From the NCBI GenBank assembly GCA_038142325.1, contig JAYQJW010000007.1, positions 1-64,000 of the forward strand: a stretch of DNA of 64,000 bases, read 5' to 3'. Below are positions 7,387-54,815 of this stretch, in pieces. The translations under genes were made by a program, and so were the position numbers. The notes beneath the pieces were generated by a model. That model was given only the letters and a program-made list of their open reading frames with translations. It had not been told where the DNA came from and searched no databases. Numbering within the stretch: position 1 is the stretch's first letter; each line of letters starts with the position of its first letter. This DNA is from Gammaproteobacteria bacterium. Lineage in GTDB: Bacteria; Pseudomonadota; Gammaproteobacteria; GCA-002705445; GCA-002716945.

Positions 7387-8725
7387 ATGACATCAGAGAA
7401 TTACACATTATGTCTTAAAAATGGTCAAGTCCTAATAGATGATCAGCTTGATAAAAACTAATGTATATGTTCAAGATGAAAAAATATCACTGATATCTGA
7501 CAAAAAATTTACTATCTACTCAAATAATTGAGTGTAAAAATCTAATTATTTTACCTGGTGTTATTGATTCTCAAGTACATTTTAGAGAACCAGGTTTAGA
7601 AGGAAAAGAAACTCTATCTTCTGGCATGTTAGCTGCTATTGCTGGTGGTGTAACATCAATTTTTGAGATGCCCAATACAAATCCACTTACCATCACTCCT
7701 GAAACAATTGAAGACAAATTAACACGCGCAAGTAAAGCTGCTTGGTCAGACTATGCTTTCTATTTAGGCGGGACAATGAGAACATCAAAAAATTTATCTA
7801 AATGGGAAAATATCAAAGGCGTTTGTGGAATTAAAATATTTATGGGTGCAAGTACCGGAGATTTAATGACTGCAACAGATGAAGAAGTTGAGTCAGTTGT
7901 ATCTAATGGCTCAAGAGTCATTGCTGTTCACGCTGAAGATCAAATGATCATGATGGAGAACATGAAATCCATCCTTCGTGATAGCACATGATGTCGGCAT
8001 GCACTGTAAGTGGAGATCGCCTGAGAGCTGTTTGTCAGCAACTAAGCGTGTTGTCGCACTTGCAAGAAAGCACAAACGACGTGTTCATATTCTTCATATT
8101 ACTACTCAAGAAGAAATGGATTTTTTAGAAAAAAATAAAGATGTTGCAAGTGTTGAATTATTAGCTAATCATTTAACATTGAATGCACCTGAATGTTATG
8201 ATAGTCTTGGCACACTTAGCGCAACAAAATCCTCCTATCAGAGAAAAGCATCATCAAGATGCTTTATGGGCAGCATTAAATAATAATATTGTTGATATAG
8301 TTGCATCTGATCACGCACCACACACTCTTGAAGAGAAATCTGCAACATATCCTAAATCACCAAGTGGGACACCAGGCGTTCAAACATTAGTACCTATCAT
8401 GTTAAACCATGTTAATAATGGCAAGCTATCTTTATCTAGGTTAGTAGAGCTATGGAGTTATGGTCCAGAACGTATACATAAAATACACAACAAAGGGAGA
8501 ATAAAAGAGGGATTCGATGCTGATTTCACTATTGTTGATATGAACAAAGAAATGACAATTAATAACAATCAACAGAAATCAAAAAGTAAATGGACGCCTT
8601 ATGATGGCGTAAAAGTTAGAGGATGGCCAACACATACAATTATAAGAGGAAATTGTGTTATGAATAATGATGAGATTATTGGCAAACCAATAGGTGAAAT
8701 GGTCAAATTCAAGGAGACCATGTAA
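7387..8725 (+). CDS. pyrC: Dihydroorotase (amidohydrolase superfamily); about four frameshifts
   Basis: LPGVIDSQVHFREPG, GGVTSIFEMPNTNP, GIKIFMG, VHAED, HILHITT, NPPIR, SDHAPH and DADFTIVD motifs spread over successive frames from ATG 7387. Confidence 0.8.
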
Positions 8726-23186: not shown

Positions 23187-23867
23187 TTATTCTTCTTCTT
23201 TGAAATTATTCACTGCATCTATTGATTTATGCGGAAGAAATATACCACATCCGTAGAGCCTCTTCTCTCCAACACCTTCTTCTTGTAGTCTAAGCGACTC
23301 TTTTTTAGAGAGATCTGCAATCATTAGGGATCTCGTATAAAAAGTTTCAGATCCAAATCTAATCATTTTCGATTGTCCGCATAAAGCTTTTCTGAGATTT
23401 ATGTTGTATTGCTTGAGCTCATTTTGAATTAGCTCAAGAAATTTATCCTCATCAATATTAGGATCACTTACGATGAATCTACAAAAAAGATCTTTAACTA
23501 TTACAAAACTTTTAACCTTTGATTTACCAATTTTCAATTTATTACCGAAAAGTTTGATCTCTTGACCCTCAATCGTTTTGATATGATCTATCTGACTTTT
23601 ATTGATACGCATAATAAGCTTGGCTCTTTTTGATAGAGGTATATTTTGACCATCTGGTCGTACCCAACCATTGCCCGACATCGGACCATGAAGCGTTTGA
23701 ATTGCATTCCTTTTGTCATTTTTAATCTCCGGTATGAGATTAAGTATCTCTGAGGAGAGTTCGAAGGCATGATCATATGGGAGTTCTTTACAGTCAACTG
23801 AGAATGATAACTCAATCATATCTGAGGTATTTGATGGAGGTTTATTTTCTTGTGATTCTTGCCACAT
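23187..23867 (-). CDS. cas6: Orphan Cas6 (Cmx6/MYXAN-like) RAMP endoribonuclease
   Basis: LPYDHAFELS (conserved His), LSKRAKLIMR, SLMIADLSKKESLRLQEEG and C-terminal G-loop GVGEKRLYGCGIFLP (GhGxxxxxGhG). Confidence 0.85.
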   Translation of the reverse strand: MWQESQENKPPSNTSDMIELSFSVDCKELPYDHAFELSSEILNLIPEIKNDKRNAIQTLHGPMSGNGWVRPDGQNIPLSKRAKLIMRINKSQIDHIKTIEGQEIKLFGNKLKIGKSKVKSFVIVKDLFCRFIVSDPNIDEDKFLELIQNELKQYNINLRKALCGQSKMIRFGSETFYTRSLMIADLSKKESLRLQEEGVGEKRLYGCGIFLPHKSIDAVNNFKEEE

Positions 23868-50913: not shown

Positions 50914-51654
50914 TCATAGTCTTACAACTTTTGTATCTAATGAGTTACCGTGTAATGAAATTACACGGTAACCATAGCTAGCATCTTTATCAATAGCAAA
51001 ATCATCAGTTTCTGATTTAAACTGATAACATGATGAAGGTGATGTGAAAAACTCAACATTGTTTATTTTATGGTGAAATTCTTGATGAACATGACCGGAA
51101 AAAATAAAAAATAAGAGATCACTTCTTTTAAGCATACACTGTATCAAGGCATTGTTATTTTCAGTTACATTCTTATCTATCCAAAGAGAGTTAATTTTAA
51201 CGAGCGGGTGATGAGTGAAAAAAATTACATTCTCTCTTATCCTCTCAACCTCACTCTTTATTTCTCTCAAGTCATTATCTTTAATACAACCCTGAACATT
51301 ATCTTGGATAGATGTATCAATGTTATGTGCTATAAAATTTGAATTCTTTATATTTATTTGATTAAGTGAAATCTGATCATCACATATACATTTCATGTTA
51401 TTTAAATCATCATGATTACCAGGAAGAAGACTTATTTGAAATTGATACTGCTTTAGAAGAGTTTTGATATTTTGGTATGACTCTCTCGAATAATCACTTG
51501 ATAGATCTCCTGTAATTACTAATCTAGCATCATTACCATGATTTCTTTTAATTTCACTAAGTGAGTGTTTCAATCTTTCATAAGGGCAACAATCGTGCTT
51601 TTCTTGGTTTATGTCTCTACTTATGTGGAGATCTGTAATTTGGATTATTTCCAT
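50914..51654 (-). CDS. CpdA-like metallophosphoesterase
   Basis: TDLH, TGDLS, PGNHD, THHP, GHVHQ and PSSCYQF. Confidence 0.85.
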   Translation of the reverse strand: MEIIQITDLHISRDINQEKHDCCPYERLKHSLSEIKRNHGNDARLVITGDLSSDYSRESYQNIKTLLKQYQFQISLLPGNHDDLNNMKCICDDQISLNQINIKNSNFIAHNIDTSIQDNVQGCIKDNDLREIKSEVERIRENVIFFTHHPLVKINSLWIDKNVTENNNALIQCMLKRSDLLFFIFSGHVHQEFHHKINNVEFFTSPSSCYQFKSETDDFAIDKDASYGYRVISLHGNSLDTKVVRL

Positions 51655-51714
51655 ACTTTTTTATATCACTAAAAGATTAAACTTTTCACAAAATATGATA
51701 TATTACGCTTCATT

Positions 51715-51960
51715 ATGAAAAAAGATATTCATCCAGATTATAAGCCTGTAATATTTCATGATGTTACATGCAATAAAAGCTTCTTGTTGTCATCTACTAT
51801 CAAAACAAATGAAACTATGAAGTATGAAGATGGTAATGAATATCCTGTATACAAAATCGAAACATCTTCAGAATCACACCCTTTCTACACCGGTAAAGGT
51901 CGTATAGAGACAAAAGAGGGACGTGTAGCTAAATTCAAGAAGAAATACTCTAAAAAATAA
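51715..51960 (+). CDS. rpmE: 50S ribosomal protein L31, type B
   Basis: MKKDIHPDY, EDGNEYP, SSESHPFYTG and GRVAKF. Confidence 0.93.
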   Translation: MKKDIHPDYKPVIFHDVTCNKSFLLSSTIKTNETMKYEDGNEYPVYKIETSSESHPFYTGKGRIETKEGRVAKFKKKYSKK

Positions 51961-51997
51961 CCCCATAAATAATAATCAATTTTTTTCAAAAAATATG

Positions 51998-52125
51998 TTG
52001 ACACATTTGTTTTCATATCATATTGTTATGGACAGAAAGTAGACAAAGTATAAATATATTAGACAAAACTTATATATTAATACTCTAATCTACTTAATTA
52101 ATTGACAAAATGCGGACAAAGGAGG
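51998..52125 (+). promoter_or_regulatory. Control region of the AlkB-like gene: sigma70 promoter, phased GACA repeats and sulfur-box
   Basis: TTGACA-17-TATTGT; GACA at 52000, 52031, 52042, 52062, 52104 and 52115; box ATATTAGACAAAACTTATAT at 52056-52075; RBS GGAGG. Confidence 0.55.
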
Positions 52126-52130
52126 CAATT

Positions 52131-53324
52131 ATGTCAACAATATTTGCAAACATTAAGTATTTGCTTGCACCATCACTAATTCTAGTAACTCTAGCAGGTG
52201 TGATTGCAGGCGGAATGCTTTCTTGGATTGGTGTTGCACTTTTAGGCGTAGGTGTCATCGTTGACACTATTCTTCGTAAGCAAGCTTCAAGCTCAATGCA
52301 CAAAGAAGACGGTTCTACTAAAGCAAGCCCAACATTCCAAAACTTGGTAATGTACATGATGTTACCTGTATTCGTACTACTACAACTTGCATTAGCATGG
52401 AGAGTATACGGATTCATGACAGGTGTACCAGTAGAAATAACAGCAACATGGTTTGGTCTAATACCTGTATATAGCGGGATTACCTCATTAGATTTAATCG
52501 GTGCAGTATTATCAACAGGTATATTTGCCGGTATAGGTATCATTTACGGACATGAGTTATCACACTGCAAAGGCTTTGCATTCATTATTTCAAGAATGAC
52601 AATGGGTCTTTCAGGTTCAGCTCATTTCTGCTATGCACACGTATACAACCATCACCTAGAACTTGCTAGTGAAGATGATCCTGCAACTGCACCACGCGGT
52701 CGTACAATTTATGGTCACTACTTACTATCATACCTAGGACAATCAAAATTCGTGTTTAACATGGAAAAAGAAAGACTTTCTAGAATGGGAGTACCTTTCA
52801 TTTCATGGCAAAACCGTTGGATTCGTGGTTATATGATGTCAGTACCTTCAGCTGTATTATTCTTTATGGCTGGTGGCTGGATTGGTATCGCAGCACTTGC
52901 TACAGTGTGGGTAATTTCAAACTTTGAATTAGAAGCTTTGAACTATCTTGAGCACTATGGCTTAATTCGTGTGAAAGACCAACCAATTGACTATCGTCAT
53001 AACTGGGACAACAACACATTGTTCACAAGCTGGTTCTTCATCGAAATCGGTCGTCAAGCTGACCACCATGATCGTGGAGAAACACATTTCTGGGAACTTG
53101 AAAACGTAGGCGCACCTAACACAGGTTGGGGCTACTTTACAATTTTCGCGCTAGCACTAGTACCACCACTATGGCACTGGTATATGCGTAAAAGATTAGC
53201 TACTTGGGATGAAAAATTCGCAACAGCTGAAGAAAAAGGTATCGCTAACAGAATCAACAAAGAAGTTGGTTATGAAGGTACTTCATTCAAAGGCGACGAG
53301 CTATCTTTCCCTGTAGAAAACTAA
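52131..53324 (+). CDS. AlkB-family membrane di-iron monooxygenase (substrate unknown)
   Basis: His boxes HELSH, HVYNHH, NYLEHYGL and QADHH; EDDPATAPRG; multiple TM helices. Confidence 0.88.
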   Translation: MSTIFANIKYLLAPSLILVTLAGVIAGGMLSWIGVALLGVGVIVDTILRKQASSSMHKEDGSTKASPTFQNLVMYMMLPVFVLLQLALAWRVYGFMTGVPVEITATWFGLIPVYSGITSLDLIGAVLSTGIFAGIGIIYGHELSHCKGFAFIISRMTMGLSGSAHFCYAHVYNHHLELASEDDPATAPRGRTIYGHYLLSYLGQSKFVFNMEKERLSRMGVPFISWQNRWIRGYMMSVPSAVLFFMAGGWIGIAALATVWVISNFELEALNYLEHYGLIRVKDQPIDYRHNWDNNTLFTSWFFIEIGRQADHHDRGETHFWELENVGAPNTGWGYFTIFALALVPPLWHWYMRKRLATWDEKFATAEEKGIANRINKEVGYEGTSFKGDELSFPVEN

Positions 53325-53335
53325 TATAGGAAATA

Positions 53336-53849
53336 TCAAGAATCAAAAGGACTTGATGCACCCCTCTTTTGAGGGGGTGTTTTTTTGTCTTCATTCTCTG
53401 GCATATACCTTAAGCCTATGCCAATAAGCGCAGCTTTTAATATTTCAATAGCATCTCTCTTATTAATATCATCAATACTAAATAGCTTAATAGTGGAAGC
53501 AGATTGTTTTTTCATTTCCATCAACCTCTAGTTTACAGCTACTACATTTATACTTAAGCCCAATATTAGTAAGTGTCTTGACGATTATTAAATTACTTAG
53601 AGAGCCTTTAATATTTTTGGGCAAACTTATCTCGATATAACCATTTTTATTGGATACATTGTATGGCTCTATTTTTACCTTACTATTACAAAGAATAGAT
53701 CTAAGCTCGTTGACGATTACCACATTAGGTATTCTTAAAAACTCTTTGTTCTCTTTGTAGAAATATACTTTTACTGAGCCTGAATAGGCTGCAATTTTGG
53801 CAGAACTCGATGGATTATCAAGCTCAGCTGCGGTTTCATGATTTCTCAT
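53336..53849 (-). CDS. Hypothetical protein under tandem SAM riboswitch control (one gene frameshifted near 53510, or two overlapping ORFs)
   Basis: ATG 53849 after SD GAGGAG; internal repeat LTNIGLKY / LIGIGLRY across the two frames. Confidence 0.55.
53358..53386 (+). terminator. Intrinsic terminator of the AlkB-like gene
   Basis: GCACCCCTC-TTTT-GAGGGGGTGT followed by a T-run. Confidence 0.8.
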
Positions 53850-53855
53850 TTTTAT

Positions 53856-53914
53856 CTCCTCTTTAGTGTTTTTACTGATCAGTATTGGCACACAATCTAG
53901 AGTTCAAATGCCAA
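53856..53914 (-). ncRNA. SAM-V riboswitch (translational)
   Basis: Minus strand UUGGCAUUUGAACUCUAGAUUGUGUGCCAA-UACUGAUCAGUA-AAAACACUAAAGAGGAG. P1 is UUGGCA/UGCCAA; conserved AUUUGAAC, UUGU and ACUAAA; loop CUCU can pair with the AGAG of the SD. Confidence 0.8.
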
Positions 53915-53946
53915 AAAAAAACCATCACGCTAAAGCAAGTGATGGT
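53913..53946 (-). terminator. Intrinsic terminator between the SAM-II and SAM-V aptamers
   Basis: ACCAUCAC-UUGCUUUAGC-GUGAUGGU followed by a U-run. Confidence 0.85.
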
Positions 53947-53951
53947 ATCTG

Positions 53952-54000
53952 ATCGCTTTAGCTCTTTTACGCCTGCAAGCTGAAATTCAAATTAGGCGTG
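53952..54000 (-). ncRNA. SAM-II riboswitch (transcriptional)
   Basis: Minus strand CACGCCUAAUUUGAAUUUCAGCUUGCAGGCGUAAAAGAGCUAAAGCGA. P1 is ACGCCU/AGGCGU; AUUUGA, UUGC and GCUAAA pseudoknot elements are present. Confidence 0.8.
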
Positions 54001-54005
54001 TCATG

Positions 54006-54034
54006 ATTAAAACATTACTATTATTTACTGTCAA
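54006..54034 (-). promoter_or_regulatory. Sigma70 promoter for the riboswitch leader
   Basis: Minus strand TTGACA-17-TTTAAT with extended TG; predicted start falls at the SAM-II 5' end. Confidence 0.7.
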
Positions 54035-54815
54035 CTTTTTTATTAAATGGATGATACAAATTATCAATTAATTTTAGCTCTAAATTTCTATTTTCCACAC
54101 CCATTACTTCTCTATCATCATCAGAAGCATCTACATATGATCTAAAGATAAAATCCCACACAGTAAAGATACTTGCATAGTTAGCTTCTCTAGATGCTGT
54201 AGCTTTAGTATGATGATTTGTATGATATTTTGGCGTTACTATAATTCTTGATAATGTTTTATCAAGTGTTTCTGTAAGCTTGATATTGCTGTGATGAAAT
54301 TGAATTGATAGAACTAAAATAATCTCATAAAACAAAAATTCTGCGAGTGTAATTCCGAAAATAAATATAACAGCAGCTTTGTAAACAGTCGACATGATAA
54401 GTTCACCTATATGAAACCTAACAGATGTGCCAACATCCATGTGCGTATCAACATGATGAACGAAGTGGAATTTCCATAGGAATGAATTAGTATGATTAAA
54501 TCTATGCCACCAATACATTGCAATATCTAGAACTAGAAAACTCAAAACAAACTTCAAAATATCAAGATCAGTAATAGAATTTAATATACCGTAATGATTT
54601 TCTGTAACCATAAGTAAGGTAGGCATGAGTATAAATATAATCGGCAAACGCATTATTATGGTATTTATAAATCCGATTATTGAGTGAAAAATCAATCTTT
54701 TGTATCTAGGAGTCTCCCAATTCCTATTCGAAAAAAATGTTTCAAGTATAAAAAATAAAATAAACCCTAGAATAAAAAATGAAAATTTTAATGTAGTTAA
54801 AGTCTCTATTGTCAT
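54021..54815 (-). CDS. Sterol desaturase/fatty acid hydroxylase family protein
   Basis: YWWHRFNH, FHFVHH, FHHSN, HTNHH and NYASIFTVWD. Confidence 0.88.
   Translation of the reverse strand: MTIETLTTLKFSFFILGFILFFILETFFSNRNWETPRYKRLIFHSIIGFINTIIMRLPIIFILMPTLLMVTENHYGILNSITDLDILKFVLSFLVLDIAMYWWHRFNHTNSFLWKFHFVHHVDTHMDVGTSVRFHIGELIMSTVYKAAVIFIFGITLAEFLFYEIILVLSIQFHHSNIKLTETLDKTLSRIIVTPKYHTNHHTKATASREANYASIFTVWDFIFRSYVDASDDDREVMGVENRNLELKLIDNLYHPFNKKVDSK

Follow-up and report, generated by a model that had tools for sequence, protein, structure and literature searches.

Poiata et al. [quoted passage not shown] In the published tandems, as PMC9481103 describes them, the SAM-II element is always associated with a terminator and the SAM-V element always with the ribosome-binding site. 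The Pelagibacter bhmT leader accordingly runs from a SAM-II aptamer through an intrinsic terminator and a SAM-V aptamer to the ribosome-binding site, and its first, transcriptional stage and second, translational stage are both predicted there to be off with SAM. The pairing of the two classes is called unique to Pelagibacter among organisms sequenced by 2016 in the relevant passage of PMC5069961.

The leader at 54034-53850 on the minus strand of the window (the whole 64-kb stretch of DNA analyzed here) is a SAM-II/SAM-V tandem of this known 'bi-mechanism' design, in a new lineage and before an unexplained target. Read along the minus strand, it consists of a promoter, a SAM-II-like pseudoknot, a terminator, a SAM-V-like pseudoknot, a Shine-Dalgarno sequence (SD) and the ATG at 53849. 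It thus carries a SAM-II element with an intrinsic terminator, then a SAM-V element at the ribosome-binding site of one open reading frame, as in the tandem arrangement defined in PMC9481103, and it shares the order of elements and the predicted division of labor with the Pelagibacter bhmT leader. It differs in its host (~1-Mb rDsr sulfur oxidizers rather than SAR11), in its target (an orphan 120-aa protein, geneA, rather than bhmT) and in its scores, as both aptamers lie below the Rfam cut-offs. The features of the locus are as follows.

54021..54815, minus strand: fatty-acid-hydroxylase-family membrane oxygenase gene, upstream of geneA (PF04116, E 6e-25)
54029..54034, minus strand: -35 hexamer TTGACA, within the final codons of the oxygenase gene upstream
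54006..54014, minus strand: extended -10, TG 54014-54013, one base, TTTAAT 54011-54006 (read from the sequence)
53955..53999, minus strand: aptamer 1, SAM-II-like H-type pseudoknot (SAM_alpha below cut-off)
53999-53994 with 53974-53969, minus strand: aptamer 1 P1, followed by the U-rich L1
53980-53975 with tail 53962-53955, minus strand: aptamer 1 P2, the pseudoknot helix
53949..53954, minus strand: linker GAUCAG, whose complement is the 5' half of the SAM-V P3 hairpin (53882-53877)
53913..53946, minus strand: intrinsic terminator, 8-bp stem 53946-53939 with 53928-53921, 10-nt loop and U-run (sequence and folding)
53861..53914, minus strand: aptamer 2, SAM-V-like pseudoknot (SAM_V over the full model length)
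53914-53909 with 53890-53885, minus strand: aptamer 2 P1
53895-53891 with 53868-53863, minus strand: aptamer 2 P2
53884-53873, minus strand: aptamer 2 P3 hairpin
53856..53861, minus strand: SD GAGGAG, adjoining the P2 tail; potential P2a partner CUCU 53902-53899
53487..53849, minus strand: geneA (P0001), the controlled gene, a complete 120-aa orphan protein (homologue comparison)
53336..53521, minus strand: second cistron (P0002, 61 aa), read in the +1 frame and sharing the final geneA codons; a slot variable among relatives
53358..53380, no strand assigned: hairpin between two convergent genes, a likely two-way terminator (simple scan)
52110..53324, plus strand: AlkB/fatty-acid-desaturase-like membrane oxygenase gene (paralogue A), convergent (PF00487, E 4e-28)

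An initial annotation had proposed the tandem leader together with its layout, a TTGACA-17-TTTAAT promoter, an 8-bp terminator with a U-run, an antiterminator pairing between aptamer tail and terminator loop, and a SAM-V loop CUCU able to mask the SD. This observation is confirmed. All elements lie on the minus strand where they had been placed, the tail and loop are exact complements, and the pyrimidine stretch corresponds to the P2a helix that PMC6061858 describes for SAM-V. Its expectation of support from the Rfam covariance models held in part, as both SAM_alpha and SAM_V match in a permissive search while neither reaches its gathering score. In that search (53700-54150) SAM_V matches 53853-53922(-) over all 66 model positions at 34.9 bits against a cut-off of 41 (E 5e-4), SAM_alpha matches 53937-54007(-) at 18.9 bits against 36 (E 0.059), and the SAM-II long-loop model gives 18.2 bits against 44. 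The two elements match on the right strand and in the right order. Across the 1.1-Mb genome this is the sole SAM_V match at E<=1 (E 3e-4), and a sample of 150 genomes belonging to other families of the class yields no match to this model at E<=0.01. Among relatives the scores range from 25.8 to 40.1 bits for SAM_V and from 17.7 to 24.7 bits for SAM_alpha; the gathering score is reached by nothing in the window and by neither model in any relative. The SAM_V cut-off is statistical and belongs to a model blind to the pseudoknot; short models of pseudoknotted RNAs score lower for this reason. With both models below their cut-offs, the element escapes standard annotation. A further tail motif of SAM-II/V type was found neither in a pattern scan of the genome nor in the 330 nt upstream of metK, both metX copies and metY.

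The individual domains share structural features with their classes. Aptamer 1 shares with SAM-II (RF00521, SAM_alpha) the P1 hairpin, the loop strand that pairs with the 3' tail, the U-rich L1 and the terminator-type expression platform, and its P1 and loop are shorter than in the alphaproteobacterial consensus. Aptamer 2 shares with SAM-V (RF01826; metY structure 6FZ0, as presented in PMC6061858) an H-type pseudoknot with a U-rich third strand, a tail abutting the SD and the short anti-SD helix P2a. Its match covers model positions 1-66 with conserved blocks identical to the consensus, and ends at 53853, four positions from the ATG, where it would be placed to occlude the SD. A 4-5 bp complement to the SD is present in the L1 linker of 15 of 16 distinct SAM-V sequences, and the anti-SD stretch of 4-5 nt compares with the 2-bp P2a described for the metY SAM-V (PMC6061858).

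The structure is conserved well beyond this genome. The whole leader is kept before geneA in all 22 aligned relatives, which represent 6 genera. The leaders share identities of 0.91 (aptamer 1), 0.85 (linker plus terminator) and 0.87 (aptamer 2) with this genome, compared with 0.59 in the promoter spacer region, and the encoded proteins are only 25-75% identical. Five further genomes have a SAM_alpha match 200-280 nt upstream of geneA, and in one genome the geneA locus is split across two contig ends. Within the 22 leaders 96.7% of 613 helix cells are paired, against 28-46% with slid partners, and the covariation score was matched by 0 of 500 shuffles. Compensatory changes occur in SAM-V P1 (C-G in 12, U-A in 9), which covaries among relatives as does P3, and in the terminator stem, where one pair is U-A in 13 and C-G in 9. 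A helix between the linker and P3, returned by RNAalifold, is kept in 22/22 with one pair G-C in 13, A-U in 8 and G-U in 1. Aptamer 1 P1 is 97.5% paired, and its sixth pair, read from the alignment as U-A or G-C, is hidden from this count by an alignment gap. The P2 pairs of both aptamers are kept in every sequence but are invariant, and lack covariation support because they never vary; the L1 U-run of aptamer 1 is invariant as well. The covarying pairs separate essentially two clades of kin that are not independent, and may reflect few evolutionary events.

Conservation extends to the promoter and to the alternative pairing on which the first stage would depend. The two hexamers are spaced by 17 nt; positions 4-6 of the -35 hexamer and the TG and final AT of the extended -10 are invariant in the 22 aligned leaders, and positions 1-3 of the -35 hexamer are at least 90% conserved. 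We infer a transcription start near 53999. A simple promoter scan did not list this promoter because it requires A as the second base of the -10 hexamer, and the corresponding terminator scan did not list the terminator because its loop limit is 8. The terminator U-run consists of nine U ending at 53913. The terminator loop contains GCUUUAGC (53936-53929), to which the aptamer-1 tail GCUAAAGC (53962-53955) is exactly complementary and which forms the 3' arm of the antiterminator. This loop is conserved and still complementary to the tail among the relatives, with the antiterminator 97.1% paired compared with 24-50% when slid, and the unconstrained minimum-free-energy fold of the 97-nt RNA of aptamer 1 plus terminator is the antiterminator form (-24.1 kcal/mol). 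GeneA is covered by contigs of four RNA-library runs (three studies), from which RNA ends and strand are not resolvable. The contigs of three of these runs extend into the leader, with one spanning the terminator without mismatch (53873-53980). Another passes through the promoter to 54084 and could reflect either transcription continuing from the upstream gene or the presence of DNA in that library.

With high confidence, we regard the leader as a genuine two-stage SAM 'off' switch (SAM-II, terminator, SAM-V) before a complete, lineage-specific protein of 120 aa. By analogy with the known riboswitch classes, from which ligand binding and both switching steps are taken, transcription would start near 53999 from the promoter within the last codons of the oxygenase gene. 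Without SAM, the aptamer-1 tail (53962-53955) would pair with the terminator loop (53936-53929) in an 8-bp antiterminator helix whose loop captures the 5' terminator arm, with no spacer before the 3' arm; because the 5' arm is trapped in this way, the terminator could not form and the polymerase would read on. With SAM, the tail would be held in the pseudoknot with 53980-53975, the terminator would form and transcription would stop at the U-run (53920-53913). In the full-length mRNA, SAM would stabilize the SAM-V triplex (P2, 53895-53891 with 53868-53863) and also the short helix between CUCU (53902-53899) and the SD, and ribosome binding would be blocked. According to PMC11508383, SAM has hardly any effect on the SAM-II domain within the full-length tandem of Pelagibacter, and the first stage here may be more complex than this scheme.

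[quoted passage not shown] The scores below the curated cut-offs would fit such a change, as would the observation that none of the targets of such switches seen in the family is a recognized Met/SAM gene, and rare variants of a SAM aptamer are described in PMC10853860 as sensing spermidine. The permissive-search alignments argue in the other direction, since all deviations from the Rfam consensus lie outside the triplex core and the U-rich third strand, the P2 strands and the tail equal the consensus letter for letter; low scores are moreover expected of short models in which the pseudoknot is not represented. We therefore consider a changed ligand improbable and retain SAM as the predicted signal.

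The target of this predicted SAM switch is a genuine gene of restricted distribution. The initial annotation had treated it as a merged reading frame of no recognized family in a sulfur-oxidizing host. The host assignment agrees with the dsrAB, dsrMKJOP-type and cysG genes in the window, and the host family consists of ~1-Mb rDsr sulfur-oxidizing bacteria. The idea of a merged frame is not supported, as the C-terminus is the same in all 21 full-length homologues of the 22 read and the frame 53849-53487 is complete. In the 22nd homologue (G010) the frame breaks off after residue 86 and continues in a different one, and three genomes have a terminator directly after the geneA stop codon. GeneA is neither a known Met-pathway gene nor a non-conserved remnant, with homologues in 28/37 family genomes and in 0/24 genomes of other families, and it has only 22 clusters among 1.84 billion proteins. 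It has no Pfam, PDB or named relative: no Pfam family was matched at E<=0.1 beyond a chance DUF2469 row, PHROGs gave only weak matches to families of unknown function, the best ESM Atlas score (0.86) was below the usable level, the profile found nothing at E<=10 among PDB sequences, and a scan of viral contigs returned no relative. The second cistron keeps a shared motif in G000, G011 and G008 and is cut short in G003. GeneB, the second cistron of some relatives, matches no Pfam family and gives a poor model (pLDDT 67.2, best fold Z 3.5). A partial duplication relating P0001 to P0002 is unsupported (BLASTP E 0.38).

GeneA has a fixed place beside membrane oxygenase genes, in a lineage in which no known methionine synthase was detected. 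The upstream oxygenase gene occurs in 30/37 family genomes and adjoins geneA in every genome that has geneA; it sits at the end of a contig in the two extra genomes, and both genes are missing from seven. These seven include G009 and G012, of the same genus and 90-92% complete, and because neither gene was found in them the pair is dispensable. The AlkB-like neighbor shows no riboswitch-like match in its leader (51650-52250) and is absent beside geneA in genus g3. The AlphaFold model of geneA (pLDDT 75.8) is predicted to have a generic ferredoxin-like fold, for which Foldseek gave no row at E<=0.001. Its conserved residues are Cys54, Cys102, Cys105, Cys117 and His119, with only C54 and C105 invariant among the Cys/His positions, and the predicted fold together with these residues suggests that the protein probably binds metal. 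The leading candidate role, which we put forward tentatively and at less than even odds, is as a redox or regulatory accessory to the neighboring membrane di-iron oxygenase or oxygenases, made only at low SAM. Adjacency in small syntenic genomes is weak evidence for the role of a protein.

The initial annotation had placed the protein in Met/SAM or organosulfur metabolism, induced when SAM is low, and the context of fixed oxygenase neighbors and a missing methionine synthase favors such a placement. A role of geneA in methionine or organosulfur supply is plausible but unproven; it is plausible because metX, metY and metK are present in the genome (98.5% complete) and no MetE-, MetH- or BHMT-type domain was found. 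This genome has no match to TIGR01371, TIGR02082, PF01717 or PF02574, and MetE, MetH, core-MetE and BHMT/MmuM/MtgE-type domains are also almost absent from the family, with PF01717 in 0/37 genomes and PF02574 in 4/37. A split cobalamin-dependent methionine synthase was considered and rejected, as no B12-binding domain lies above its cut-off (PF02310 reaches 16.1 bits against 32.1) and both pterin-binding matches are dihydropteroate synthases. In its broadest form, a methionine role would mean that the family lost every known homocysteine methyltransferase and that SAM riboswitches turn on a lineage-specific module at low SAM, constituting an undescribed route of methionine supply. Such a module would comprise geneA, its membrane-oxygenase neighbor and further small orphans behind their own SAM-II-type switches, and might, for example, release methanethiol oxidatively from dimethylsulfide or a related compound for use by MetY. 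We regard this broader proposal as unlikely.

Improbable to the same degree as a changed ligand is the narrower proposal that geneA, alone or with the second cistron, supplies the missing homocysteine-to-methionine step of the lineage as a new minimal thiol-activating (zinc) module. The absence of known enzymes for this step would leave room for it, and the conserved Cys/His of geneA presumably resemble the zinc sites of homocysteine methyltransferases. In SAR11, moreover, SAM-off control is carried by methionine-synthesis genes, as reported in PMC5069961. Against this, an enzyme of this kind would be very small at 120 aa, and a methyl-donor-binding partner is not evident. The gap also exists independently of geneA, as neither geneA nor PF02574/PF01717 was found in G009 and G012, and it could be closed by MetY with methanethiol or by import.

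Less probable still is that geneA is a small SAM-cleaving enzyme akin to the phage SAM lyases, or another SAM- or sulfonium-handling enzyme of that fold. The phage SAM lyase Svi3-3 (PDB 6zm9) is the best structural match of the model and tops the VIA-align fold search (Z 7.4, rmsd 3.1 over 92 residues), covering residues 21-120, nearly the whole folded part, and among the listed Foldseek matches it ranks first by probability (0.97, TM 0.46, E 0.016); a SAM-AMP lyase is also among the fold matches (Z 5.6). These Z values lie in the noise range, below the 8 that is the usual best for models without a true match, and the fold is a generic one. Any likeness would be confined to the fold; Svi3-3 has no sequence or profile similarity to geneA. 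Kinship with the SAM lyases was rejected at the sequence level, with an hhalign probability of 0.3% against the T3 SAM lyase. Production of a SAM-destroying enzyme at low SAM would also make little regulatory sense.

That the conserved leader is instead a protein-dependent or purely kinetic attenuator with a coincidental likeness to SAM aptamers is scarcely credible, as the sub-threshold scores and invariant key helices that would allow it are set against the adjacency of two distinct SAM-class matches, arranged as in the published tandems and each joined to the expression platform expected of its class, and against a genome-wide SAM_V match that has no counterpart in the 150 genomes from other families.

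The two-stage SAM switch stands as the preferred reading of the leader. The 120-149 known tandems may already include this type among their metagenomic members; strings of this leader were absent from the supplementary alignments of PMC2704228, which are gapped and carry low weight on this point. The finding widens the known range of the SAM-II/SAM-V tandem to an abundant group of marine sulfur oxidizers. A riboswitch is a reliable label of physiological role, and this one marks the conserved orphan geneA, together with several other small orphans in the family, as part of a low-SAM response. The combination of a SAM switch with the lack of a recognizable methionine synthase provides concrete candidate genes for methionine supply in these streamlined bacteria.

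On the minus strand upstream of geneA, an ORF for a 120-aa orphan protein, the initial annotation had placed a promoter, a SAM-II-like element, a terminator, a SAM-V-like element, an SD sequence and an ATG, and we recovered this order within 54034-53850.

Features of the geneA region (leader elements from sequence reading)
54034-54029, minus: TTGACA box
following TTGACA, minus: 17-nt spacer
54014-54006, minus: TG-n-TTTAAT
53999-53955, minus: first pseudoknot-type element (aptamer 1, SAM-II-like)
53946-53913, minus: hairpin (stem 8 bp, loop 10 nt) followed by nine U
53914-53861, minus: second pseudoknot-type element (aptamer 2, SAM-V-like)
53861-53856, minus: SD GAGGAG
53849, minus: start codon ATG of geneA
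53521-53336, minus, +1 frame: second cistron, overlapping the last codons of geneA

An Rfam search of the whole window at gathering thresholds returned zero matches, and a permissive search of 53700-54150 found both elements at scores under those cut-offs. The entire SAM_V model aligned at 53853-53922 (34.9 bits versus a cut-off of 41, E 5e-4). SAM_alpha matched 53937-54007 (18.9 bits versus 36, E 0.059), and the SAM-II long-loop model reached 18.2 bits versus 44. The leader of geneA is the sole SAM_V match at E<=1 in the whole 1.1-Mb genome. A simple consensus scan listed neither the leader promoter nor its terminator, because both fall outside the rules of the scan.

To evaluate conservation of the leader, we aligned the upstream DNA from 22 of the 28 geneA-bearing genomes, representing six genera (alignment A2). 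The promoter, both aptamers, the terminator and the SD are common to all 22 leaders; five of the six unaligned genomes have a SAM_alpha match 200-280 nt upstream of geneA, and in the remaining one the geneA locus is divided between two contig ends. Identity to the leader of the window is 0.91 for aptamer 1, 0.85 for the linker and terminator and 0.87 for aptamer 2, far above the 0.59 of the promoter spacer; the geneA protein itself is 25-75% identical. For the tested structure, comprising P1 and P2 of both aptamers and the terminator, 96.7% of 613 cells are paired versus 28-46% with slid partners, and the covariation score was reached by none of 500 shuffles. Compensatory pairs occur in the terminator stem (U-A in 13, C-G in 9) and in SAM-V P1 (C-G in 12, U-A in 9), and compensatory changes are also present in the P3 hairpin of SAM-V. 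In SAM-II P1, pair six is masked by an alignment gap; judged by eye, it is either U-A or G-C, likewise a compensatory change. These differences mainly split two clades and thus represent few independent events, and both pseudoknot helices are invariant, so that covariation speaks neither for nor against them. The linker that follows aptamer 1 (53954-53949, minus) has the same sequence as the loop and 3' strand of SAM-V P3 and can pair with the 5' strand at 53882-53877; this helix is kept in 22/22 leaders with one compensatory pair (G-C in 13, A-U in 8) and may provide cross-talk between the two switches.

The proposed antiterminator is borne out at the level of complementarity: the tail of aptamer 1 is exactly complementary to the terminator loop in the window, and 97.1% of cells in this pairing are kept across the 22 leaders versus 24-50% when slid. 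Conservation of a terminator loop is unusual in itself. Formation of the tail/loop helix would enclose the 5' arm of the terminator in the helix loop, and since zero nucleotides separate this helix from the 3' arm, antiterminator and terminator should be mutually exclusive. In pseudoknot-free folding, the 97-nt RNA adopts the antiterminator form (-24.1 kcal/mol), and its 52-nt portion from the aptamer tail onwards forms the terminator (-14.2 kcal/mol). [quoted passage not shown] The overall design is the same as the SAM-II/SAM-V "bi-mechanism" tandem. According to PMC9481103, 120 examples of it were first described and 149 were known in 2022; in every case SAM-II is placed at a terminator and SAM-V at the RBS. 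The arrangement is therefore already known, and what is new is the lineage and the target. Literature searches combining SAM-V with gammaproteobacteria, and SUP05 with riboswitch, found no report of such a tandem, and SAM_V was not found in a sample of 150 genomes from as many other families in this class; the known metagenomic examples may include the type found here.

Contigs from four RNA-library runs in three studies cover geneA, and those of three runs extend into the leader. One (53873-53980, no mismatch) crosses the terminator, one ends at 53921 in the U-run and one continues past the promoter to 54084. These contigs give no ends, strand or level and thus provide only a hint of transcription of the unit.

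Homologues of geneA occur in 28 of 37 family genomes and in none of 24 genomes of other families. The merged ORF of the initial annotation is unneeded: among 22 sequences examined, all 21 full-length homologues share the same four C-terminal residues and the other (from genome G010) has a frame broken after residue 86, and in three genomes a terminator directly follows the geneA stop, so the 120-aa ORF is whole. No Pfam family was found for the protein, and a PDB sequence search returned no relative; its 46 relatives in 5.8 billion clusters are unnamed or "hypothetical", and only 22 clusters were found among 1.84 billion representatives. C54 and C105 are invariant in the alignment; C102 and H119 are kept in 90% or more of the sequences and C117 in most of them. 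The structural model (pLDDT 75.8) predicts a beta-beta-alpha repeat of the ferredoxin-like type, with a phage SAM lyase as the top match at Z 7.4, inside the stated noise range of the tool. Foldseek gave this pair a probability of 0.97 but an E of 0.016, and profile comparison (probability 0.3%) gave no backing for the fold match. A possible SAM lyase likeness next to a SAM riboswitch is striking, though in the noise range.

The second-cistron slot behind geneA holds geneB (111-119 aa) in six relatives, a protein of ~55-60 aa in five, and is empty in four. GeneB is itself a conserved orphan (L023:1820-2176, L032:527-859 and others). A membrane oxygenase gene of the fatty-acid-hydroxylase family immediately precedes geneA in all geneA-bearing genomes and occurs in 30 of 37 family genomes; in the two beyond the geneA set it lies at a contig end. 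An AlkB-like oxygenase gene is convergent with geneA in most genera and missing beside it in genus g3; no riboswitch of its own was found for the copy in the window. Most family genomes, among them those without geneA, carry a second AlkB-like paralogue (G000 C2:389484-390671 in this genome) that is ~72% identical to the geneA-adjacent one.

The sulfur-oxidizing host proposed initially fits the window, where dsrAB, dsrMK/O-type genes, cysG and a sirohydrochlorin amidase-like gene indicate a reverse-Dsr sulfur oxidizer. An ORF just upstream of the dsr cluster (23190-23867, minus) scored above the cut-off of the NCBIfam Cas6/Cmx6 model (125 bits versus 98.85). The 98.5%-complete genome encodes metK, two metX-like genes and metY, with no match at all to MetE, MetH, or the Meth_synt_2 or homocysteine S-methyltransferase domains, no B12-binding domain above cut-off, and no core-MetE or BHMT/MmuM-type domain found. 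Across the 37 family genomes, PF01717 occurs in none and PF02574 in four, two of them on very short contigs. GeneA as the sole missing methionine enzyme is disfavoured by its absence from two fairly complete genomes: seven genomes have neither geneA nor the fatty-acid-hydroxylase-family oxygenase gene, and two of these are 90-92% complete. Elsewhere in this genome, glmM lies in two overlapping ORFs (L087, C2:799871-803590), one metX copy is interrupted by TGA (C2:213887-214937), and the similarity of a 180-aa ORF at 8183-8722 of the window to dihydroorotase models is confined to their C-terminal part. Either assembly frameshifts or gene decay would account for these cases. The 1.1-Mb genome carries two separate dihydropteroate synthase paralogues (L087 and L088, contig C2).

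A single SAM_V match (38.8 bits, L007:1501-1569, minus, on contig C7 of genome G031) directly precedes a gene that is unrelated to geneA and whose 448-aa product has two Cys-His-Met motifs of cupredoxin-like type. SAM-II-like aptamers of a second type (SAM_alpha 18-32 bits), all of which overlap an SD, occur at G000 C8:1376-1457 and 1615-1693 (locus L002) and at L056, L053, L055 and L080, with two units in tandem in three genomes. Behind these lie ORFs of ~59 aa (start apparently ATT/ATC/ATA), 79-83 aa, 98 aa (a membrane protein) and 60 aa. Additional SAM-II-type aptamers in the family precede other small orphan ORFs, and no upstream SAM-II/V-type element was found for metK, metX or metY of this genome; uncharacterized genes therefore appear to make up the low-SAM regulon in this lineage.
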